Source: a plasmid. Taken from it: 32,715 bases of DNA. A program made the translations under genes and the position numbers. The notes under the pieces are model-generated. The model was not told the origin of the DNA. It did not search any database and saw only the letters and a list, made by a program, of their open reading frames with translations. Location of the stretch: assembly GCF_053078305.1 (NCBI RefSeq), contig NZ_CP166878.1. One strand, given 5' to 3'. This document shows positions 1,923-31,996 of the stretch, piece by piece (the stretch's first letter is position 1; each line of letters begins with the position of its first letter).

Positions 1923-2987
1923 ATGGATAAAAAGACAAAAACATATCCTTTTGGTGACATTGAGTTTTTTGACCAGTTAGAGGAACATGCATGGGACCAG
2001 ATTCATGATGGTATGCTACCAATTATGGATTTGTATCTTGATCCGACAGTAACCGATATATTTATAAACAGGTATGACAATATATATACATCTGTCAATG
2101 GCAAGTATGTAAAGACCGACAGTTCCTTTTCCAGTGAACGGGCACTTAAAGCCTGGATTGATCAAATCGCAACGGTGTTGAGGCAGCCATTTTCAACGTC
2201 AGGAAACTATAAATATGGTGATGTCATTGAGCCTGTACTTGATGCCCGATTTCCCGATGGTTCCCGGTTGATGTGTACAGACCCGGTGATTTCACCGCAG
2301 GGTTCTACGGTAAGTCTTCGTAAAGTACCTAAGCAAATACTGGAAGAAAAAGATTTTATAAATTCCGGTATGTTGACGAGAGATATTCTTGATTATCTCA
2401 TTAGTGTTATACAAAAACGGAAAAATTTTATTGTTGCTGGTAATACTGGTTCTGGCAAAACATCACTTTTACGCTTGCTCGCCAGGTATATTGATACGAT
2501 GGAGCGTGTTATCACCGCCGAAGACACTCAAGAACTTCATATACACAGGTATTTTCCGTTAGGGATTGCTCTGGAAGCTGCACATCGTAAAGATGTGAAT
2601 GCGGATCTTCCTTCTCTGGTTCACCTGACTATGCGTGGTAATCCCGATCGTGTATGGGTTGGGGAGGTAAGAACGGCAGAGGCTATAGCTGCTTATTACA
2701 TGGTTCTGGCAAGTGGAACTATAGGTAATGCTACAACTCTGCACTCCGTTACCCCTATGGGGGCAATACGCAAAATGACCTGGCTTATGTCAAGCTATCT
2801 CAGTATCGATTTTCAGATAGCTCAGGATTTAATTATGTCAGAGGTTGACGTGATTATTCAGTGCCGGAGAACATCAAAGCATGGAAGAAGAATTACAGAT
2901 ATCGTCGAAATACGTGAAGGGAAAATTGTTCCTATATTCAAGTTTGATGAAGAGCAAGAAGTACATGTCAGGTTTGACAAAAAATGA
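1923..2987 (+). CDS. virB11: VirB11-family secretion ATPase
   Basis: 354-aa ORF; Walker A GNTGSGKTS, downstream ITAEDTQEL and conserved His-box region typical of VirB11/TrbB traffic ATPases; ATG at 1923. Confidence 0.9.
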   Translation: MDKKTKTYPFGDIEFFDQLEEHAWDQIHDGMLPIMDLYLDPTVTDIFINRYDNIYTSVNGKYVKTDSSFSSERALKAWIDQIATVLRQPFSTSGNYKYGDVIEPVLDARFPDGSRLMCTDPVISPQGSTVSLRKVPKQILEEKDFINSGMLTRDILDYLISVIQKRKNFIVAGNTGSGKTSLLRLLARYIDTMERVITAEDTQELHIHRYFPLGIALEAAHRKDVNADLPSLVHLTMRGNPDRVWVGEVRTAEAIAAYYMVLASGTIGNATTLHSVTPMGAIRKMTWLMSSYLSIDFQIAQDLIMSEVDVIIQCRRTSKHGRRITDIVEIREGKIVPIFKFDEEQEVHVRFDKK

Positions 2988-3000
2988 ACATTTAGCATTA

Positions 3001-3080
3001 TATGCTTATATGCTTATATGCTTATATGCTTATATGCTTATATGCTTATATGCTTATATGCTTATATGCTTATATGCTTA
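3001..3080. repeat. Perfect tandem octamer microsatellite (TATGCTTA x10)
   Basis: Ten uninterrupted head-to-tail copies of TATGCTTA directly readable in sequence, starting 14 bp after the virB11 stop. Confidence 0.95.
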
Positions 3081-3105
3081 TATCATTGTGTTTGTGTGAA
3101 ATATT

Positions 3106-3299
3106 GCTGTAACATCGACGGTCTACGACCACCTACCACCTGAATAGCTGTAGGTTCCGTGCGGTCAGGCTTGGCAGGGGGCTGACGCGGTTCCTGGCGA
3201 CATGAAACTCCCTGGTTAGGGGTATCGGCGCGACCTGGCATCTGTGACTCTATAAAGCCATTTTTCGCGCCTTCCATGCCGCTAAAGCGGCATATTCCA
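3106..3299 (+). repeat. 194-bp repeat family, copy 1 (upstream of ccdA)
   Basis: Near-identical to 18900-19093 and ~90% identical to 3962-4155; begins GCTGTAACATCGACGGTCTACG and ends with hairpin ATGCCGC-TAAA-GCGGCAT then ATTCCA. Confidence 0.9.
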
Positions 3300-3961: not shown

Positions 3962-4155
3962 GCTGTAACATCGACGGTCTACGACCACCTACCAGCCGAG
4001 TGGCTGTCTGTTCCGTGCAAATGGGCTTTGCAGGGGGCTGGCGCGGTTCCTGGCGACCTGAAAGCCCCTGGTTAGGGGTATCGGCGCGACCTGGCATCTG
4101 TGACTCTATGAAACCATTTTTCGCGCCTTCCATGCCGCTAAAGCGGCATATTCCA
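3962..4155 (+). repeat. 194-bp repeat family, copy 2 (downstream of ccdB)
   Basis: Same length and ends as copy 1; about 20 substitutions clustered in hairpin-forming segments, several compensatory. Confidence 0.9.
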
Positions 4156-17649: not shown

Positions 17650-17710
17650 CAACCCCCTGATATCTCTCTTAGAGCTTTTGCGGGGCCAAAGAAGATAATC
17701 AGGGGGTCCA
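17650..17710 (+). promoter_or_regulatory. Long stem-loop in repA leader (candidate antisense-RNA target)
   Basis: Arms CCCCCTGATATCTCTCTT / AAGAAGATAATCAGGGGG around an 18-nt loop containing GCCAA (one base off the conserved IncFII/IncB loop hexamer); location upstream of leader peptide and repA. Confidence 0.45.
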
Positions 17711-17743
17711 AAGCAGGCTTTTGCCTGTAAAGGATTATAGCAA

Positions 17744-17800
17744 ATGCATTTTTCAATACAAGACTACTGCCCGGCAATAAGTGCGGGCGGTGGTGGCTGA
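17744..17800 (+). CDS. Leader peptide overlapping repA start (translational coupling candidate)
   Basis: 18-codon ORF MHFSIQDYCPAISAGGGG whose stop lies 17 nt inside repA, the arrangement seen for tap/repY-type leader peptides. Confidence 0.45.
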   Translation: MHFSIQDYCPAISAGGGG

Positions 17801-18506
17801 AAAGAACAATTCCTTAATCCCCCGCATATCGCCGTCAGGGGTGGCCAAACAAAGTCCATGCTATAACGTTGTGTCGCGTAAGCGACGCCGTTTCCTCAAT
17901 CGCTGGATTAAATCGCTGGCGACGGTCGCTGGGCGTGTCAAAATCAAAAACGAACTCCGCCGCCGTATCCGGCATAACCGATATTGGGTTAATGAGGCTA
18001 ACAAGTTTGGCATAGAGGCACTTTGCGAACTGATGTTAGCTATCCTGGATGATCTCGATTTACGCTCCTGGGAAACCAGGCATAACCTCGAAACACTGGC
18101 AGAACGTGCCGGACTGGTGACACGCAGTGACGCGGGGCGTAAATCTATTTCCCGTGCCAGTAGGGGATGTGATCGCCTGGTCTGGTTGAATGCGATCATT
18201 ACAGATAAAGCGCCGTTTAACCCCTATGATGCACGGTGTGCCTGTAAACACATTGAAGTAACCGAAGACTTCTTTGCCATACTCGGCATTCCGTTAAAAC
18301 TGGTTTATCGGGAACGTGCCAGGCTGTTAAAGGCAGATCCTAATGAAATGATTTACTCCGGGGATGCCAGACTGATAGCTATCAGAGTCCAGAACTGGAC
18401 ACGGAAAGCGGCAGCCGGATTAGCCCGGATGAAAGCGAAACGCGACGCAGCTCGACAACGCAAAAAAGAATATTACGCTCACCCACCTACCCCTATTCCG
18501 GTCTGA
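17781..18506 (+). CDS. repA: IncFII-family replication initiator RepA
   Basis: Segment LETLAERAGLVTRSDAGRKSISRASRGCDRLVWLNAIIT aligns with the RepA1 core of R100-type proteins (SITTLAIECGLATESAAGKLSITRATRALTFLSELGLIT); GTG start right after an in-frame stop. Confidence 0.75.
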   Translation: MRAVVAEKNNSLIPRISPSGVAKQSPCYNVVSRKRRRFLNRWIKSLATVAGRVKIKNELRRRIRHNRYWVNEANKFGIEALCELMLAILDDLDLRSWETRHNLETLAERAGLVTRSDAGRKSISRASRGCDRLVWLNAIITDKAPFNPYDARCACKHIEVTEDFFAILGIPLKLVYRERARLLKADPNEMIYSGDARLIAIRVQNWTRKAAAGLARMKAKRDAARQRKKEYYAHPPTPIPV

Positions 18507-18899: not shown

Positions 18900-19093
18900 G
18901 CTGTAACATCGACGGTCTACGACCACCTACCACCTGAATAGCTGTAGGTTCCGTGCGGTCAGGCTTAGCAGGAGGCTGACGCGGTTCCTGGCGACATGAA
19001 ACTCCCTAGTTAGGGGTATCGGCGCGACCTGGCATCTGTGACTCTATAAAGCCATTTTTCGCGCCTTCCATGCCGCTAAAGCGGCATATTCCA
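18900..19093 (+). repeat. 194-bp repeat family, copy 3
   Basis: Differs from copy 1 by only a few substitutions; same orientation; sits between the repA origin region and the next gene. Confidence 0.9.
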
Positions 19094-20221: not shown

Positions 20222-20340
20222 GTAGATAAATGACGTTGCTACGTGGTCTCCCTCTTTTGCTGATTTCACGTAGCACTCTCACTCTGCCGCTACTTCTCGT
20301 TATTCTGAACAGATGATTGAAAAATAAGGAGAATCAAATA

Positions 20341-20379
20341 ATCTCTTGATTTTATAATCCTATGATTATAAGATTGTTG
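20341..20379 (+). promoter_or_regulatory. Operator-like block P1 (CTTGATTTTATAATCCTATGATTATAAGATTGTT)
   Basis: About 85% identical over ~38 bp to 23919-23956 and related to the TGATT-repeat region upstream of parA. Confidence 0.5.
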
Positions 20380-21529: not shown

Positions 21530-21583
21530 TGATCGTGGCGCGATTGCCAGCGAGCTAGGGGTTCCGTGGGAATTTCTGCGATA

Positions 21584-21621
21584 GGGGTTTGAAGCCCAAC
21601 CGTACGAAAACGTACGCTAAG
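21584..21621 (+). mobile_element. Tn1000/Tn3-family 38-bp terminal inverted repeat
   Basis: GGGGTTTGAAGCCCAACCGTACGAAAACGTACGCTAAG, close to the gamma-delta/Tn3 IR consensus (GGGG...ACGAAAAC...ACG.TAAG); a resolvase gene remnant ends 2 bp away. Confidence 0.75.
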
Positions 21622-22404: not shown

Positions 22405-22536
22405 TATACAATCACTTGATTCGATAATTATAAAATTAAGTGATTTTATGATTGCATGATTCTATGAGCATGGGATTATTAGAATGTTTGGCAGAGGTAC
22501 TATGTGAACAAAGGGGAGGGGAAAATGCCTAAAGTT
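22405..22536 (+). repeat. Orphan duplicate of par promoter-operator plus first 4 parA codons
   Basis: About 94% identical over 132 bp to 24844-24975, including RBS and ATGCCTAAAGTT, then diverges; the operator inverted repeat is degenerate in this copy. Confidence 0.85.
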
Positions 22537-22614
22537 GGAGCAGCGGGAGCGTTCGAACAGAGACTTACGGTTTCGTTCTTTGTGCAGCAGTTGAAACCGT
22601 AATTATTTGTTTTA

Positions 22615-22865
22615 GGGGTTTGAGGCTCAGTGGAACAATAACCGCCGTTAAGCGGTCATTTTAAATAGCCAAAAATCAACCAGCCAATTTACATCGTGAA
22701 TCTGCGTTCTTGGCTATCTGTTTTGGGGGGCCAAGTTGGCTTTACTCATCCTGGCCGTTTGCGGAACAAAAGACGTTGTTGATCTCAACAGATTGATTAA
22801 CCTGTTATTGACCATTCAATTGAACCGCTTAACCGCCTTTTGAGTTCCACTACTCCCCAAACCCC
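22615..22865. mobile_element. Miniature Tn3-family element (TIME-like), 251 bp, with 5-bp target-site duplication
   Basis: 38-bp IRs GGGGTTTGAGGCTCAGTGGAACAATAACCGCCGTTAAG (22615-22652) and inverted GGGGTTTGGGGAGTAGTGGAACTCAAAAGGCGGTTAAG (22828-22865); flanked by direct repeat TTTTA on both sides; no ORF inside. Confidence 0.8.
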
Positions 22866-22882
22866 TTTTATGCCAAGTAGAA

Positions 22883-23091
22883 GGGGTTTGAGGGCCAACC
22901 GTACGAAAACGTACGGTAAGAGGAAAATTATCGTCTTAAAAATCGATTAGTAGACAATGCCGTCCGTTAAGTGCCAATTTTCGATTAAAAAGACACCGTT
23001 TTGATGGCGTTTTTCTATGTCCATTATGTTTTGATATATCAGACAGTTACTTCACTAACGTACGTTTTCGTTCCATTGGACTTCAGCCCCC
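22883..23091. mobile_element. Second miniature Tn3-family element (TIME-like), 209 bp, with 5-bp target-site duplication
   Basis: IR GGGGTTTGAGGGCCAACCGTACGAAAACGTACGGTAAG (22883-22920) and an inverted IR at 23054-23091 that contains TGGAACGAAAACGTACGTTA; flanked by TAGAA on both sides. Confidence 0.75.
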
Positions 23092-23111
23092 TAGAATACG
23101 TCAGATGTGTT

Positions 23112-23805: not shown

Positions 23806-23918
23806 GACTTTGTTCTCCTTCTGCCATGATAAAAGATCTTGTTTTACATACCATGATAGGCACATGTGCCTGTTTGGTGCAACATGCTTTACAAACATAA
23901 GAATAATAAAAGGATATA

Positions 23919-23956
23919 ATCCCTTGATTTTGTAATCATATGATTATATGATTGTT
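23919..23956 (+). promoter_or_regulatory. Operator-like block P2 in divergent promoter region
   Basis: ATCCCTTGATTTTGTAATCATATGATTATATGATTGTT, homologous to P1 (20341-20379); lies between divergently oriented genes. Confidence 0.5.
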
Positions 23957-24843: not shown

Positions 24844-24963
24844 TATACAATCACTTGATTCGATAATCATAAAATCAAGTGATTTTATGATTGCATAATT
24901 TTATGAGTATGAGATTATTAGAATGTTTGGCAGAGGTACTATGTGAACAAAGGGGAGGGGCAA
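24844..24963 (+). promoter_or_regulatory. par promoter-operator (candidate centromere/operator)
   Basis: Perfect 12-bp inverted repeat AATCACTTGATT ... AATCAAGTGATT plus reiterated TGATT motifs directly upstream of parA. Confidence 0.6.
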
Positions 24964-25587
24964 ATGCCTAAAGTTATAGCATTTTTAAATGGTAAGGGGG
25001 GGGTGTCTAAGACAACCTCGGCAGTCAATATTGCTACTGCTCTTGCTCGTAAGGGATACAAAGTTGTCGTTGTGGATACCGATCCTCAGGGAAGTGTTAG
25101 TAACTGGTATGATGACAGTAAGTGTGTTTTTGATGTAGCAGAAGCTACGACAGAAAAAGAAATTTACCGTTTGCGGAAGGCGCTTCCTTTGCACGATTTT
25201 ATCATTATTGATGGTGCTGCGGCGATTTCGGCGATATCGGCAGCTGCTGTTATGGTTTCTGATCTTGTCATTATCCCAGTTACTCCTTCGCCGCTTGATT
25301 TTGCTGCATGTGGCGCGATATTGGCAGTGATAGAAGCTCGGCAGGATTTACGCCCGGTGATTGCTCGCTTTTTGATTACTAAAAAAGTACAGCAAACGCA
25401 TATGCTATCTTTGCTGAAAGAATCTATTGCAGAAACAAGCATACCAGCATTAAAAACAGGAACGTCGTACAGGCAGTCATATATAAAGTCTATGCTAGAT
25501 GGTGGTACTATATTTGATACAAAAGATAGTGCTGCTAAAGGTGAAATATCAGTCATTACAGAAGAAATACTTGGACTATTAAAATGA
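24964..25587 (+). CDS. parA: ParA-family partition ATPase (ParF-like)
   Basis: Deviant Walker [19 protein letters not shown]; ATG 24964 with GGGGAGGGG RBS (ORF track begins at upstream GTG 24943). Confidence 0.9.
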
Positions 25588-26458: not shown

Positions 26459-26737
26459 TCAACCCTTTATAGACGAAGTGAAGTCAGACCACTGTTCAAT
26501 CCTGAATGCTCTGATATCCCTGACTGAATTTGGGAACCATTCAAGAGCTTTTAATGCGTTCATAGCCTGAAAAAGGTTTGCCATATTTTCATCGCTATTT
26601 GTGTACAGGCTTCCCTGGATTCGCTCAAATCCGTACCTTTTAAGGGTCGAACTTATATCGTTGTAAGCCTGTGACACGCCTTTCGGATGGTGTTTTTCTG
26701 TATCTGCAACGGTTAAATCAAATGATATTGCGTACAT
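26459..26737 (-). CDS. vapD: VapD-family endoribonuclease (Cas2-like fold)
   Basis: MYAISFDL N-terminus, QGSLYTN and SVRDIRAF motifs match VapD proteins as remembered. Confidence 0.85.
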   Translation of the reverse strand: MYAISFDLTVADTEKHHPKGVSQAYNDISSTLKRYGFERIQGSLYTNSDENMANLFQAMNALKALEWFPNSVRDIRAFRIEQWSDFTSSIKG

Positions 26738-26740
26738 AAC

Positions 26741-27031
26741 TTACTCTGCATCAGGATCTTGTAATAGTTTTGAAAGTTTGTACAACTCTTTCTCACCTGT
26801 CTGAACCAGTATAATGTTGACAAGAATATCACCATCAGGTAGTTCTTGGGCTGGCTCTCCTACCTCGTAAGGAATACCAAGCAGCCCGAATGTCTTAATC
26901 GTACCTGTTGGAATTTGCACTGTATTCATTGTTTTCGCTCCGATTTCCAGCCTCATCTTATCAGTCATAGCTTTGATAATAGCCTGACTGTCAGGTGACT
27001 GGGCCGCAATTACTTCTTCTAATGTTCTCAT
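26741..27031 (-). CDS. Hypothetical protein immediately upstream of vapD (possible cognate partner)
   Basis: 96 aa, 3-bp gap to vapD in the same operon; no sequence-level assignment possible. Confidence 0.5.
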   Translation of the reverse strand: MRTLEEVIAAQSPDSQAIIKAMTDKMRLEIGAKTMNTVQIPTGTIKTFGLLGIPYEVGEPAQELPDGDILVNIILVQTGEKELYKLSKLLQDPDAE

Positions 27032-27049
27032 CTGTTGATGCCCAATTTT

Positions 27050-27349
27050 TTACAGGTGGAAAGCCATACGCTTGCCTGTAGGCAATGTCACGTCCAGGCT
27101 TAACTCGCCGCCCAAAGCTTTTACATAACGTTTAAGCGTCGATATTCTCGGATCGTTGTCAGTTTGCTCCATCCTGGCAACTGATGGTTGTTTTACTCCC
27201 ATCATTGTAGCCAGTTCGGTTTGGGATATGTTCAGTTCATCACGTAAAGCACTAAGTGCGAGCTGAATGCTGGCTTTTTCAACTCGGTCGGCTACGTGCG
27301 CCTGCATTTCAGGACTCTCTTTAGCCAGTAGTTCTCTGTAGGTAGCCAT
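27050..27349 (-). CDS. XRE-family helix-turn-helix protein (HigA-like antitoxin/regulator candidate)
   Basis: HTH segment NISQTELATMMGVKQPSVARME and C-terminal LKRYVKALGGEL; start set at the ATG preceded by GGAGAAA RBS (ORF track extends to 27400). Confidence 0.65.
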   Translation of the reverse strand: MATYRELLAKESPEMQAHVADRVEKASIQLALSALRDELNISQTELATMMGVKQPSVARMEQTDNDPRISTLKRYVKALGGELSLDVTLPTGKRMAFHL

Positions 27350-27720
27350 GTTATTTCTCCAGTTTTGCAAGATGTTCACGGTATTCATTATATACTGCAT
27401 TATAACGAATACACTATAATTTCCAGAAGAACAGGGCTATTTAACATAATGGACGTTATCAGCACCACCGGATCACAGTTCGTTGTCAGATCTGAAAAAT
27501 CCGCTCAAAAGATCATGTTTTCCTGGGCGTTTTTCGTCGTTTTTTATGTTGCTTATTTGTTAATAAAATCTCGTTTCTTGTTTTGGCTGAATTTGGATGT
27601 GAAAGCCTTATATTTGCAAGTTATCCGGTGAAGGGAGGTAGCCGAGACTGAGGATTGATTGTTTTGTACAAGTTCTAATGCATAATGTGTACATATAGTA
27701 GCGTTAGCATAGGGCGTAGT

Positions 27721-28224: not shown

Positions 28225-28350
28225 AGTGAACTCACTCACTACAAAGGTTGTGGGGGGAGAGTGGATATCTTTTAATCATTAGTGTATCTTTTTTCTGTCT
28301 GCGGGATAGGGAAGGGCAGACTGTAACCTATCATTAACCAATTCTCTGTC

Positions 28351-28384
28351 GAGGCAACGTTACGTTGCCTCTGGCAGCGTAACG
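28351..28384 (+). promoter_or_regulatory. Palindrome module 1 (GAGGCAACGT-T-ACGTTGCCTC + TGGCAGCGTAACG)
   Basis: 21-bp perfect palindrome followed by a conserved 12-mer, ending 26 bp upstream of ATG 28411; repeated at 28885-28917. Confidence 0.7.
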
Positions 28385-28410
28385 TGATCCTCTTGTTTGA
28401 GGTAAACGTT

Positions 28411-28761
28411 ATGAAAGACAATCAAAACCAATCACTCCAGGTAGGTGACGCAACTATTCGTATTGGTGACATTTTTCATACCCATTGGGGCTATGAGCAA
28501 ACTAATATCGAGTTTTATCAAGTTGTTTCACTACATGGAAAGAAAACAGTAGGGCTTCGGGAGATTGCTAGGGAAGTCGTAGAGCACACCAGTTGGTGTA
28601 GTGCAGAGATTCGCCCTGTTCCTGATAAGTTTATTGATGAAGCCATCCATAAACGCCGGGTTATCGCAAAATGGGGGTCTGTCCTTGTACGGTTCAGTGA
28701 TGTAACCAATGCATGGCGAACTTCACCAGAAGCTTTACACCATTGTTCCTGGGGATACTAA
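28411..28761 (+). CDS. Hypothetical protein (116 aa)
   Basis: ATG with GAGGT RBS; followed by a terminator; unknown family. Confidence 0.5.
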   Translation: MKDNQNQSLQVGDATIRIGDIFHTHWGYEQTNIEFYQVVSLHGKKTVGLREIAREVVEHTSWCSAEIRPVPDKFIDEAIHKRRVIAKWGSVLVRFSDVTNAWRTSPEALHHCSWGY

Positions 28762-28770
28762 ACGTTGTGA

Positions 28771-28796
28771 GAAGGCGCAGTTGCGCCTTCTTCTTT
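28771..28796 (+). terminator. Rho-independent terminator
   Basis: GAAGGCGCA-GT-TGCGCCTTC followed by TTCTTT. Confidence 0.7.
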
Positions 28797-28884
28797 ATGC
28801 GTGATAGATTGGTTCTGTCAGATGATGCAGCATCAATTTTGATGTTCTGACGTTTCAGCATCAAAGAACATTCACACAACTGTC

Positions 28885-28917
28885 GAAGCAACGTTACGTT
28901 GCTTCGGCAGCGTAACG
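28885..28917 (+). promoter_or_regulatory. Palindrome module 2 (GAAGCAACGT-T-ACGTTGCTTC + GGCAGCGTAACG)
   Basis: Same architecture and same spacing to the ATG as module 1, with a symmetric G/C to A/T change that preserves the palindrome. Confidence 0.7.
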
Positions 28918-28943
28918 CAGCTTCTGAATACAGGAGTCTGGTT

Positions 28944-29303
28944 ATGACTAGTGTTATAAACAATTTATCATCGTTAAACCTGATCCCTTGCAGATCTCCA
29001 TTTGATTCTGTAATGGGAGAACGATGCTATCAGTCGATTGTTTCTGTTGATACATTCACTGATTTCATTGTTGAGGCTCAAGCTGATGGTATGCTGAATG
29101 AATGCAATCTTCGCGAAAATGATAGGTATTCTCGATTATTGAGAACATATCTTTTCAGGAGTATGGCAGTTATTCATGCTGTAATTGATCTACGAGCAGG
29201 TATTGTTCATTTGATTGTATACTCGCTCGTGACAAATGAGATTACGGAGTTTGAAGCCGAATATTTCATTTGTCAGATTCGTCAGAATCTAGACCGTTAT
29301 TGA
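28944..29303 (+). CDS. Hypothetical protein (119 aa)
   Basis: ATG 28944 with AGGAG RBS (ORF track starts at TTG 28899 inside the palindrome); followed by terminator. Confidence 0.5.
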   Translation: MTSVINNLSSLNLIPCRSPFDSVMGERCYQSIVSVDTFTDFIVEAQADGMLNECNLRENDRYSRLLRTYLFRSMAVIHAVIDLRAGIVHLIVYSLVTNEITEFEAEYFICQIRQNLDRY

Positions 29304-29320
29304 TCTGATTCTGAACTGTA

Positions 29321-29349
29321 AGGGAATGCTATTGCATTCCCTTTTTTTC
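29321..29349 (+). terminator. Rho-independent terminator
   Basis: AGGGAATGC-TATT-GCATTCCCT followed by TTTTTTT; the convergent minus-strand gene's last codons overlap the hairpin. Confidence 0.7.
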
Positions 29350-29925
29350 TATCAGTGTTGAAAGTTTTTCGCTGTATTCTTTTCGATTATGATGTAATTT
29401 TAGCCTAACGTTAGAAAACTTTTTAAGAACAACTCTTCTATTGCTATAGAAGTCCTTTTTTGATATTTCTCCACAAAGATAAAGAATCCGTTGTTGCTTA
29501 ATGATGTTATCTGTAAGGGTGATAAGGGATATCATCATCATAACAACAGGCGATATAAGAACAGGTATTTTTATTTTTTTGTTATCATTATTTATATGGT
29601 TGTATATATCTTTATAATTTGGTATTTCTGAAACAGTTTGTTTTAAGTGTTCGTAATGCGACGAAAACTCATCTTTTTGAATACGGATAATTTCTTCTGC
29701 TTTTGGCAATAATGATTTTGCAACTATATGTTTTATATAGTGCTCTTTGTTTTTATAACGTTTTAGATTGCTTGATGTAAAAAGAATTTCAAGATATTTA
29801 ATTGTATTAATCGCATCGGTAACATGATGCTTGTGAATAAGTTTTTCACTATGTAATTTGTTGTCAATTTCTCCAATAAGAAATTGATCATTTATTCTTA
29901 AATTAAGTTGTTTTCTCTCCATCAT
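29329..29925 (-). CDS. Hypothetical protein with single central TM helix (198 aa), second gene of AT-rich operon
   Basis: ORF with AAGGTGG RBS embedded in the upstream gene's end; hydrophobic segment IPVLISPVVMMMISLITL; unusually AT-rich relative to neighbours. Confidence 0.55.
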   Translation of the reverse strand: MMERKQLNLRINDQFLIGEIDNKLHSEKLIHKHHVTDAINTIKYLEILFTSSNLKRYKNKEHYIKHIVAKSLLPKAEEIIRIQKDEFSSHYEHLKQTVSEIPNYKDIYNHINNDNKKIKIPVLISPVVMMMISLITLTDNIIKQQRILYLCGEISKKDFYSNRRVVLKKFSNVRLKLHHNRKEYSEKLSTLIEKKGMQ

Positions 29926-30721: not shown

Positions 30722-30974
30722 TGTCATTGGTAGTGCCTATTACCGTTAGTTATGATCACGAAAAACGCGATGATTGTTCATTACAATGCCCTATCGTTAG
30801 ACAGGACATGTGAGCGTTTTATCAACAACGTAAGCAGAATTTTTTGCAGAAATGATCCTGCATCAATACTGAAAATCGTTGTTGTCTTACATGTGTTAAA
30901 CATGATTTTTTAGTCAATTTCATAACAAAATATACCTACGTTTTTTTGGGAAGTCCTCTTACTGAACCAACAGA

Positions 30975-31885
30975 AAGAGGACGAAAAAGAGGAAACATGA
31001 ATGTTTCCTCTGCCATGTTACTACCGTGAATTTTCAGCTACTTATCTGTACTGGTTGCCTCCAGTATTTTCAGATTCATCTACAGACTTCGGCTATATCG
31101 TCTGTAGATTTTTGCGCCTACTCGTTCACTCTCCCACACTCAGGAATGTAATTTCGGTGCCACCCGAAATTTTCCAGAGTGCTTCCCACGTTAGCTGATC
31201 TTGTCGGGATAACCCGCCACTGGCTCAGACAAACTACTAGGCTACGCCTTACCATTTCTGGCTTTCAGGGGGCCGAGATTCCAAAGCACCTCCCTTACTC
31301 ATAATTTGCCGTCAACACCATAGCCAGACACTTAAGTCATGGCTGGTTATCACTTACCCGAATGCGACCTCTTCGGACGCAATTACAGGCTTGAGCTTTA
31401 CAGCGATCTGCAAAGGTTGCCCCTCACAGTACCGACGTTTCCAGGTTTCCCCTCAACGCCCTGACACCTCACGATGCCCTCAGCAGCCCACCTGTCGGGA
31501 ATATGTTGTACCTTCTCAAGCACCCCATATTCGGGATTTTCACCCGTTCAAGATCAACAGGGATCACGTAGTCACCTACGTTCCCGTTTCCGTGTCGCCC
31601 AGTCTCACGCTTTGGCGTGGATTGGGTCGGACAGGGGAGTTTCACCCCCGAACGCCCTTCGTAGCCGTACCAGCCCAATTACAGGCATACGGCTTCGGCA
31701 GTAACTGTTATCAGGGTTGGCAGTCCTGATAACTCACCTTCGTTTGGCAGACGAAGGCTTTTGGCTTTTTTCGTCTTTCGACTTCCCAAAAATGCGTCGA
31801 GAGTTGGCAGCTCGCAACGCACGTTTTGTTACGTAAGCGATGCTTGATAGTCCGGCGCCCGAAAGGCTCGCATCGAGCCGGACAT
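30975..31885 (-). ncRNA. Candidate ~900-nt structured non-coding RNA (unclassified)
   Basis: ORF-free, G-rich on the minus strand; minus-strand sigma70-like promoter (-35 TTGCGC, 17-bp spacer, -10 TATTAT at 31918-31890) and a minus-strand terminator (GAGGAAACAU-UC-AUGUUUCCUC then UUUUU) at 31003-30975; many internal hairpins. Confidence 0.3.
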
Positions 31886-31996
31886 CAGTATAATATTTAA
31901 CCTGTAAGCGCAGCGCAAGGAATCTCTTTATAAGGTATTCCCATATGTTGATTTCTTTTATGTAGCGGTTACTACATAGCTTTTATGAGGATTTCG

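Follow-up and report, generated by a model that had tools for sequence, protein, structure and literature searches.

So far, the control of plasmid establishment genes has been explained either by operators in duplex DNA, such as those of CUP/ArdK (PMC6289460) and Reg576 (PMC6294495), or by promoters formed in single-stranded DNA (ssDNA), such as Frpo (PMC11541004). The element described here is a pair of short palindromes at positions 28351-28371 and 28885-28905 of a 32,715-nt stretch of plasmid DNA (RefSeq assembly GCF_053078305.1, contig NZ_CP166878.1), referred to below as the window, which corresponds approximately to a whole ~30-kb Escherichia coli plasmid. The palindromes stand upstream of two small genes, gene A (28411-28761, + strand, 116 aa) and gene B (28944-29303, + strand, 119 aa). 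Comparison with related sequences suggests that each palindrome is probably the DNA copy of an RNA hairpin, termed HP1, at the centre of a 117-131-nt messenger RNA (mRNA) leader.

The CUP regions of the IncN plasmid pKM101, the Reg576 system of p576, and the EGeRS elements of pLS20 resemble this locus in that a repeated cassette precedes several establishment or leading-region genes and forms a regulon. In CUP regions, which exceed 400 bp (PMC6294495), ArdK binds to duplex sites (PMC6289460), and the targets of Reg576 are heptamers in direct repeat (PMC6294495). Inverted repeats with predicted RNA or ssDNA folds also abound in EGeRS1 (PMC8708921); unlike the present leader, however, EGeRS1 is ~325-500 nt long, belongs to Gram-positive plasmids, and has no sequence relation to it. 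In comparison with all three systems, the cassette described here measures only ~150 bp, and covariation, G·U pairs, and pairing with the Shine-Dalgarno (SD) sequence and AUG point to RNA. The Frpo and ssi elements of F-like and IncI leading regions are likewise located in establishment regions and place hairpin-forming sequence before small genes. Frpo is characterized by a long imperfect hairpin on the transferred strand, with -35 and -10 hexamers in duplex form (PMC11541004). The leader stem, in contrast, is only 13-15 bp long and lacks these hexamers, its sense strand folds better than the template, and no similarity of the leader to known Frpo sequences was found. Frpo hairpins span a few hundred nucleotides and are much longer than HP1.

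Among systems acting at the RNA level, the most similar are PK-repBA (the repZ/repA leader of IncI, IncB, and IncL/M plasmids), hok mRNA, and the tisB standby-site leader. The features in common are action in cis, a stem-loop followed by a hairpin that hides the SD sequence and start codon, a single-stranded stretch before a structured ribosome-binding site (RBS), and a competing pairing that would activate translation. Unlike these systems, the leader described here has no leader peptide, and a search of the plasmid gave neither an antisense promoter nor a complementary RNA. Moreover, its pseudoknot is predicted to be 5'-terminal rather than formed with the RBS region, and one leader serves two unrelated genes. 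A further parallel is the mRNA of phage T4 gene 32, in which a 5' pseudoknot is followed by an unstructured stretch to the RBS that is coated by gp32. The order of a 5' H-type pseudoknot and an unstructured, G-poor stretch upstream of the RBS is the same, whereas two stable hairpins would lie between the G-poor stretch and the RBS in the present case. A search of Rfam 15, riboswitch families included, gave no match at E <= 1 to the module in the window, L002, L004, L014, or L022 (labels of this form denote further sequences used in the comparison), and no paper was found that describes the leader or links a pseudoknot or structured leader to leading-region genes. The leader is presented as a candidate for a new cis-regulatory RNA motif of narrow distribution.

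The first-pass annotation of this DNA had reported two perfect 21-bp palindromes, each followed by a box, GGCAGCGTAACG, ending 26 nt before a start codon, and a paired substitution between the two copies. All of these features are present in the sequence. Copy 1 comprises GAGGCAACGT-T-ACGTTGCCTC (28351-28371), an extra T (28372), GGCAGCGTAACG (28373-28384), and the ATG at 28411; copy 2 comprises GAAGCAACGT-T-ACGTTGCTTC (28885-28905), GGCAGCGTAACG directly after it (28906-28917), and the ATG at 28944. The difference that preserves symmetry is real (G28353/C28369 in copy 1 vs A28887/T28903 in copy 2). The symmetry holds as well, although, strictly, each palindrome consists of 10-nt arms around one unpaired centre base, and copy 1 carries the extra T28372, which had been overlooked. 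The repeat is non-random and lies far above chance: a 15-mer core with up to three mismatches has six matches compared with 0.78 expected, a number reached in none of 100 shuffles, and a repeat finder reports the two copies as a pair (D15) at 92% identity. No third copy was detected in the window by covariance model R1 or by a pseudoknot pattern scan.

The flagged span represents just the central part of a larger element. Complementarity beyond the palindrome (CTGTC...GGCAG, with one T·G) lengthens the stem to 13 bp, and the conserved module, which spans ~28297-28413 and ~28816-28946, exceeds the flagged span at both ends. The 26-nt spacing is common to the two window copies but varies from 17 to 28 nt in relatives. 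The box GGCAGCGTAACG is a near copy of the left arm of the palindrome. Three features had been missed: the pairing of this box with the start codon, its potential alternative pairing with the right arm of the palindrome, and a covarying pseudoknot upstream. Of the three readings originally offered, the comparative evidence speaks for a leader hairpin and against both a dimer operator and an ssDNA promoter.

Relatives were gathered by blastn, one genome scan, one metagenome scan, protein look-ups with gene B, and a covariance-model search, giving 11 distinct leaders in all. The leader-bearing plasmids, ~26-35 kb in size, come from Salmonella, Proteus, Providencia, Klebsiella, Enterobacter, and Citrobacter, and leader-bearing contigs from Photorhabdus, Candidatus Erwinia dacicola, and metagenomes. 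Only some 22 PLSDB plasmids and a few metagenome contigs were found to contain the motif, and every leader is located directly upstream of a homologue of gene A or gene B. Blastn with the other leader variants gave no plasmids beyond the same 22, a pattern scan of genome contigs returned only two loci, both of the Salmonella/Proteus type, and no copies were found on viral contigs. An unrelated metagenome contig gave a weak covariance-model match (L017:104-195, - strand, 32.8 bits) with a 12-bp HP1-like stem, a 28-nt loop, and CGUAGC/GUUAUG pairing. It has no SD sequence and only a 6-codon open reading frame (ORF), and is probably a decayed copy of the module.

Sequence comparison gives the following order within the leader: an H-type pseudoknot, a G-free linker, HP1 (13-15 bp), and a directly adjacent second hairpin, HP2. 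HP1 of copy 1 (28346-28377, + strand) has 13 bp and a U bulge, encloses the palindrome, and includes a U28349·G28374 wobble; HP1 of copy 2 (28880-28910, + strand) has 13 contiguous bp around its palindrome, with a U28883·G28907 wobble. In HP2 of copy 1 (28378-28413, + strand), the sequence designated box 3, CGUAACGU (28378-28385), pairs with ACGUUAUG (28406-28413), which contains the AUG (28411-28413), while an inner stem joins CCUC (28389-28392) to the SD sequence GAGG (28399-28402). In HP2 of copy 2 (28911-28946, + strand), CGUAAC (28911-28916) pairs with GUUAUG (28941-28946, AUG at 28944-28946) and CUUCUG (28921-28926) with the SD sequence CAGGAG (28931-28936). Across relatives, the outer stem of HP2 is formed by a conserved CGUARC box and the GYUAUG of the start codon.

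Both hairpins are predicted by RNAfold in both copies (z ~ -6.2 and -6.3), and RNAalifold applied to a MAFFT alignment of 9 leaders independently returns exactly HP1 and HP2. Once the 11 distinct sequences have been aligned to the model, standard pairs make up 97.1% of cells, and in six pairs both partners change. Covariation scores 0.264, compared with 0.169 for shuffled data, and none of 500 shuffles reaches the former value; sliding the partners by 1-3 columns as a control leaves only 30-52% pairing. The symmetry-preserving substitution corresponds to column pair 10/31, which is A-U in six sequences, G-C in three, and G·U in two, and its G-C state recurs in an independent metagenome copy. 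Similarly, a change of the box from GUAACG to GUAGCG is matched on the start-codon side by a change from ACGUUAUG to ACGCUAUG. The AUG is located within the outer stem of HP2 in 11/11 sequences, and the inner stem between anti-SD and SD is found in every lineage with differing sequences. On the sense strand, HP1 and HP2 together contain 31 G·U cells vs 2 A·C cells, and the whole leaders fold with -49.1 and -52.1 kcal/mol, compared with -36.0 and -44.3 kcal/mol for the antisense strand. The window, L025, and L014 have an HP1 loop of 3 nt, and the Salmonella and Proteus mirabilis copies, in which 5 nt are inserted, have one of 6 nt. Opening the RBS would cost 10.7 kcal/mol in copy 1 and 14.5 kcal/mol in copy 2 (10-15.5 kcal/mol over the leaders vs a median of 8.95 for the other genes of the plasmid).

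These observations also bear on whether the palindromes act as duplex DNA. As an operator, each would bind a dimeric plasmid regulator, for example the XRE-type helix-turn-helix (HTH) protein encoded at 27050-27400, with GGCAGCGTAACG serving as a third half-site. Such a role would suit the sequence shared by copies 1 and 2, the substitution that keeps their symmetry, and the resemblance of GGCAGCGTAACG to the left half-site, and repeated operators before establishment genes are known, e.g., the IncN CUP/ArdK sites (PMC6289460). However, half-site spacing differs by 5 bp between lineages, whereas a dimer operator would keep it fixed, and the Proteus vulgaris HP1 copies contain a 1-nt bulge and a U·U mismatch. 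The asymmetries are of the G·U type on one strand only (31 vs 2), the element is located ~50-80 nt downstream of the likely start site, and the box covaries with the start-codon flank. Furthermore, the pseudoknot stems described below are wholly different between the two copies of the same plasmid, which would not be tolerable for a shared regulator. Covariation, G·U pairs confined to the sense strand, and the variable loop thus favour a sense-strand RNA hairpin, and an operator is judged highly improbable.

Other functions of the hairpins as RNA were also considered. HP1 is followed by GGCAGCGUAACG or CGUAAC and not by the U run of an intrinsic terminator or attenuator. An RNA thermometer was rejected, as HP2 is too stable. 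In-frame GTG and TTG starts, which might open a leader peptide, are present in the window but are not conserved in relatives.

The stem sequences of the upstream pseudoknot are unrelated from one lineage to another. At 13-24 nt upstream of HP1, all 11 leaders contain interleaved helices in the order A5'-L1-B5'-L2-A3'-L3-B3', which is the arrangement of a predicted H-type pseudoknot. In copy 1 (28297-28332, + strand), A5' is GUCUGC, L1 GG, B5' GAUAGG, L2 GAAGG, A3' GCAGAC, L3 UGUAA, and B3' CCUAUC. In copy 2 (28816-28863, + strand), A5' UGUCAGA is followed without L1 by B5' UGAUGC, a 17-nt L2 with its own hairpin, A3' UCUGACG, L3 UUUCA, and B3' GCAUCA. The Salmonella form also has a 17-nt L2 with a hairpin, together with A5' GCCUGU, L1 CC or UAC, B5' GGUGCA, A3' ACAGGC, L3 UGAAA or UGAGA, and B3' UGCACU. 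L022 has A5' ACCGGU, L1 CAAC, B5' GUGCG, L2 CUAUA, A3' GCCGGU, L3 UGCAA, and B3' CGCAC, and the Proteus vulgaris form has A5' UCCAC, L1 AGC, B5' AAGCGU, L2 AACCA, A3' GUGGA, L3 UUCAA, and B3' ACGCUU. At least five unrelated stem pairs are represented, and even those of the two window copies are unrelated. Loop 3 always has 5 nt and reads U-N-N-A-A in 8 of 10 leaders. A riboswitch forms its ligand pocket from numerous invariant loop and junction nucleotides; in the pseudoknot described here, conservation is confined to loop 3, and there is free variation in L1 and L2.

When each leader is searched without supervision for its top-scoring pseudoknot, this architecture emerges in 9 of 10 cases, copy 1 included. 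For copy 2, the search picks a different fold, with which the fold identified by hand ties at a score of 31; when loop 3 is held at 5 nt and the position is fixed, the best score is again 31, and 0 of 1000 shuffles reach it. The pseudoknot of copy 2 is less certain than that of copy 1. In constrained shuffle tests, 0-7 of 1000 shuffles per sequence reach the observed result (p 0.001-0.007), and a plasmid-wide scan of three whole plasmids gives about one chance match per 30 kb. In the cross-lineage comparison, all cells are canonical and 12 of 13 pairs change on both sides. These counts were obtained with a purpose-written script because MAFFT shifted rows of the alignment despite N padding and anchors; one subfamily, counted with a standard pair-count tool, is 98.3% paired with one double change. 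The strongest independent support for the pseudoknot comes from an unseeded copy, L014:1464-1538, found by a covariance model of HP1 and HP2 alone. Its upstream sequence contains a G-free linker, a predicted pseudoknot with the stem GAUGGG/CCCAUC, in which an A-U pair of window copy 1 is replaced by a compensatory G-C, and a TATCTT hexamer 6 nt before the pseudoknot.

The linker between pseudoknot and HP1 contains 0-1 G in 13-22 nt (nine leaders). In copy 1 (28333-28345, + strand; AUUAACCAAUUCU), it is G-free, single-stranded, and unpaired in the minimum free energy fold, and in copy 2 (28864-28879, + strand; AAGAACAUUCACACAA) it is G-poor. Upstream of the pseudoknot, copy 1 has a candidate promoter (28262-28290, + strand) with TGGATA (28262-28267), a 17-nt spacer, and TATCTT (28285-28290), which ends 6 nt before the pseudoknot. 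Copy 2 has a putative extended -10-like element, TGaTAGATT (28802-28810, + strand), 5 nt before it. A script finds a -10-like hexamer (A2/T6) 5-8 nt before stem A in most of 10 leaders, with a TGn extension in four. For L025, the top pick of the script lies at 12 nt, and TAAGGT is seen by eye at 7 nt; Sal_c2 has none. The position of these hexamers just before stem A suggests that the pseudoknot forms the extreme 5' end of the mRNA.

The relation between the copies can also be used to assess a mobile or recombinational repeat, REP-, MITE-, or attC-like, that was recently duplicated and has no regulatory role. The presence of two copies on one plasmid would fit such an origin, as would the two Salmonella copies, which are ~90% identical over ~135 nt beside unrelated genes; this identity suggests exchange between copies. 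In the window, however, only ~40 nt are alike and the rest keeps its structure with different sequence, which indicates that the copies are old and constrained. The position relative to SD and AUG is also fixed. REP, MITE, and attC readings were rejected, since none of 5426 E. coli chromosomes carries a copy and the plasmid lacks both an integron integrase and attC core sites. An inert repeat of this kind is barely credible.

Alternatively, the hairpins could act in the ssDNA of the transferred strand, as a priming signal (an ssi or primosome site) or as an Frpo-like promoter. The location is suitable for such a role: ardC adjoins gene B in relatives, which indicates an establishment-type or leading region, and Salmonella and Proteus plasmids have an inverted-repeat-rich, oriT-like region upstream. 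G·T pairs are tolerated in DNA hairpins, and the EGeRS1 cassettes of pLS20 carry the same ambiguity between ssDNA and RNA (PMC8708921). Frpo, however, requires its -35 and -10 hexamers in a long duplex (PMC11541004), and the short HP1 contains no TTGACA-like or TATAAT-like hexamers. In the leaders, the -10-like hexamers lie upstream of the whole structure, and the template strand folds markedly worse. Moreover, HP2 is built from the SD sequence and AUG and covaries with both, which is sensible only for mRNA. Action in ssDNA is accordingly considered quite improbable.

With the leader taken as RNA, it is rather likely to gate translation in general, and the favoured mechanism is a hypothetical translational switch. 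In the ground state, HP1 and HP2 would be formed and ribosome binding would be hindered. Since the CGUARC box is a near copy of the inner part of the HP1 5' arm, it could compete for the 3' arm. If the 5' arm were displaced, bound, or cut off, the 3' arm could capture the box in an 11-13-bp hairpin, the start codon would be released, and translation would begin. Expressed in four segments, pairing of 1:2 and 3:4 would correspond to the off state and pairing of 2:3 to the on state, with HP1 acting as a lock. The pseudoknot and linker may protect the 5' end, provide a platform for ribosome standby or factor binding, or contain the site of the trigger. In this way, the cassette would place two unrelated genes of an establishment-type region under one post-transcriptional control. 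The alternative hairpin between the HP1 3' arm and box 3 is 93.9% canonical over 9 sequences and has a C(UUCG)G cap in most copies. For transcripts ending after box 3, it is almost equal to HP1 in folding energy in the two copies (-19.0 vs -19.5; -18.6 vs -20.0), and when the HP1 5' arm is blocked in a folding computation, the leader refolds and the AUG becomes free. A search of the plasmid for a trans-acting antisense partner found complements of the core only in the modules themselves, and no antisense promoter.

The same RNA structure could also function without a switch. The pseudoknot and HP1 would then serve only to shield the 5' end against decay of the RNase E type and to insulate the RBS against upstream sequence, and HP2 would set a constant low translation of two possibly toxic small proteins. 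Structures at the 5' terminus are known to stabilise mRNAs, as in the ompA leader. In agreement with such a passive role, HP1 and HP2 together are the clear thermodynamic minimum, the alternative hairpin shows no discriminating covariation, and the pseudoknot, unlike a ligand-binding aptamer, keeps little sequence beyond loop 3. A passive element, however, needs none of the following features: box 3 is a near copy of the HP1 5' arm that can pair extensively with the 3' arm in all lineages; in each of the three Salmonella-group variants, the whole 6-nt HP1 loop is complementary to the 5' strand of HP2; and the G of box 3 that forms a G·U pair with the U of AUG is invariant (11/11), and would pair with C in the alternative hairpin. 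For these reasons, a purely passive leader appears doubtful. Within gated translation as such, a real switch and constitutive damping combined with stabilisation are about evenly balanced.

Several points weigh against the gated leader and particularly against the switch. The alternative hairpin lacks discriminating covariation, its score being reached by 198 of 500 shuffles; in the full leader, HP1 and HP2 together exceed it in stability by 4.4 kcal/mol or more; and it is weak in the Proteus vulgaris lineage. Consequently, the switch is put forward as a hypothesis. Occlusion of the RBS is in the upper range without being extreme, as controls reach 17 kcal/mol. The position and loop constraints of the pseudoknot shuffle tests were chosen after the data had been seen, and the cross-lineage alignment of the pseudoknot is a manual one that was fitted to the structure. 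A strict sigma-70 consensus scan around the modules called no promoter, and the start site, and with it the transcription of the pseudoknot and HP1, is deduced from the -10-like hexamers. Finally, the comparison covers only about six independent lineages.

A more far-reaching proposal is that the leader represents a new class of plasmid riboregulator, in which the pseudoknot and linker sense the state of a fresh recipient (a host protein, access of ribosome or RNase, or an absent plasmid product) and flip the strand-exchange switch. This proposal is speculative and rather unlikely. If true, translation of the two establishment genes would surge once the plasmid has entered a cell by conjugation, which would be the equivalent of zygotic induction at the level of RNA.

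The setting of the two genes is a plasmid of ~30 kb. The region is matched by ten PLSDB records at an identity of at least 99.4% (e.g., pEc631_3), and the plasmid is present in 14 of 5426 complete E. coli genomes and chromosomal in none. It encodes a VirB-type type IV secretion system, a gene resembling that of the type IV coupling protein (T4CP), ssb, ccdAB, parFG, and two replication genes. One of the known leaders discussed above occurs on it as well: Rfam PK-repBA matches 17651-17778 (+ strand, 86 bits, E = 4e-18) directly before a RepA-family gene (17781-18506), as an IncB/I/K/L-M-type pseudoknot-controlled replication leader.

The palindromes themselves are located among small orphan genes, and searches of Pfam, NCBIfam, PHROGs, and PADLOC gave nothing for the two genes or for those around them. 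The family of gene A is widespread in conjugative plasmids, with 2813 PLSDB records that include IncL (pOXA-48-like), IncX1, and IncI2 plasmids. Gene A has no Pfam, NCBIfam, or PADLOC match, and its AlphaFold2 model is all-beta and without a PDB match (a Foldseek attempt was uninformative). The family of gene B is very rare (5 representatives among 1.84 billion proteins; 19 PLSDB records), and Pfam gives no match. After gene A, a terminator-like hairpin can be read from the sequence at 28770-28798 (+ strand; AGAAGGCGCA-GT-TGCGCCTTCT, then TCTTTAT), which was not called by a strict terminator scan; its presence implies that copy 2 has its own promoter. The same type of scan places an intrinsic terminator after gene B at 29320-29350 (+ strand). 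Upstream, the - strand carries a three-gene block (26459-27400) for the XRE-type HTH protein (116 aa), a DUF5397-like protein (96 aa), and a VapD/Cas2-like protein (92 aa). This block is directly upstream of, and divergent from, a 179-aa gene that precedes copy 1, and no link between the block and the leader was found.

Further repeats were observed elsewhere on the plasmid. A G+C-rich element of ~195 nt, with a GCCGC-TAAA-GCGGC hairpin at its end, is present in three direct copies (3106-3299, 3962-4155, and 18900-19093; 91-98% identical). It is 80-85% identical to part of ~1.5-kb cryptic E. coli plasmids, which account for 648 PLSDB records and are in many cases classed as mobilizable. Rfam gives no match to the element, and its folding z-score is only modest (~ -2 on either strand); a role as origin of transfer (oriT), ssi, or non-coding RNA is possible. 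Between the VirB11-like ATPase gene and the first of these elements, ~11 tandem copies of the octamer TTATATGC occupy 2982-3101. Four copies of a 38-nt unit, AGGGGTTTGAAGCCCAACCGTACGAAAACGTACGCTAAG, are located at 21583-21621, 22614-22652, and 22882-22920 (direct) and at 23056-23093 (inverted), in a ~1.7-kb stretch without long ORFs. Each contains a CCGTACG-AAAA-CGTACGG palindrome, and the units could be iterons or repeats of the origin or oriT type. Clusters rich in ATGATT/TGATTA repeats (20338-20378, 22405-22542, 23916-23956, and 24844-24981), two of which form a 138-nt pair with 93% identity, are found upstream of small genes and a ParA-type gene (24943-25587). Similar arrays occur by the par genes of a Proteus plasmid (L003:960-1120), and the clusters are probably partition or operator sites. 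Lastly, ~1 kb at 30930-31985 has no convincing ORFs, a higher G+C content, and many local hairpins. It is located upstream of a 234-aa gene and the T4CP-like gene (1-1866) and is a possible site of oriT. The T4CP-like gene of relatives is encoded on the opposite strand and comes directly after the two genes convergent with gene B, so that a rearrangement has occurred here.

Cassettes of a different kind were observed before homologues of gene A in other plasmid groups. IncX1, IncL/M (pOXA-48-like), and IncI2 plasmids each have their own repeated cassette of ~100 nt before these homologues and neighbouring small genes, including an antirestriction gene (L005:1460-1581 and 2370-2492; L006 upstream of 1190, 2492, 3777, and 4755, partial before 1442, 3490, and 4249; L007 upstream of 2498 and 3228). 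In every such cassette, a leader with two hairpins follows a near-consensus promoter whose -35 and -10 elements flank a palindrome.

The leader described here is compact and supported by covariation, and it could be added to RNA-family libraries. Although the motif is rare, gene A homologues in IncX1, IncL/M, and IncI2 plasmids stand behind other plasmid-specific repeated promoter-leader cassettes, so the principle may be general. The module suggests a third layer in the control of establishment genes, in addition to duplex operators and ssDNA promoters, in which a shared structured mRNA leader would gate translation.

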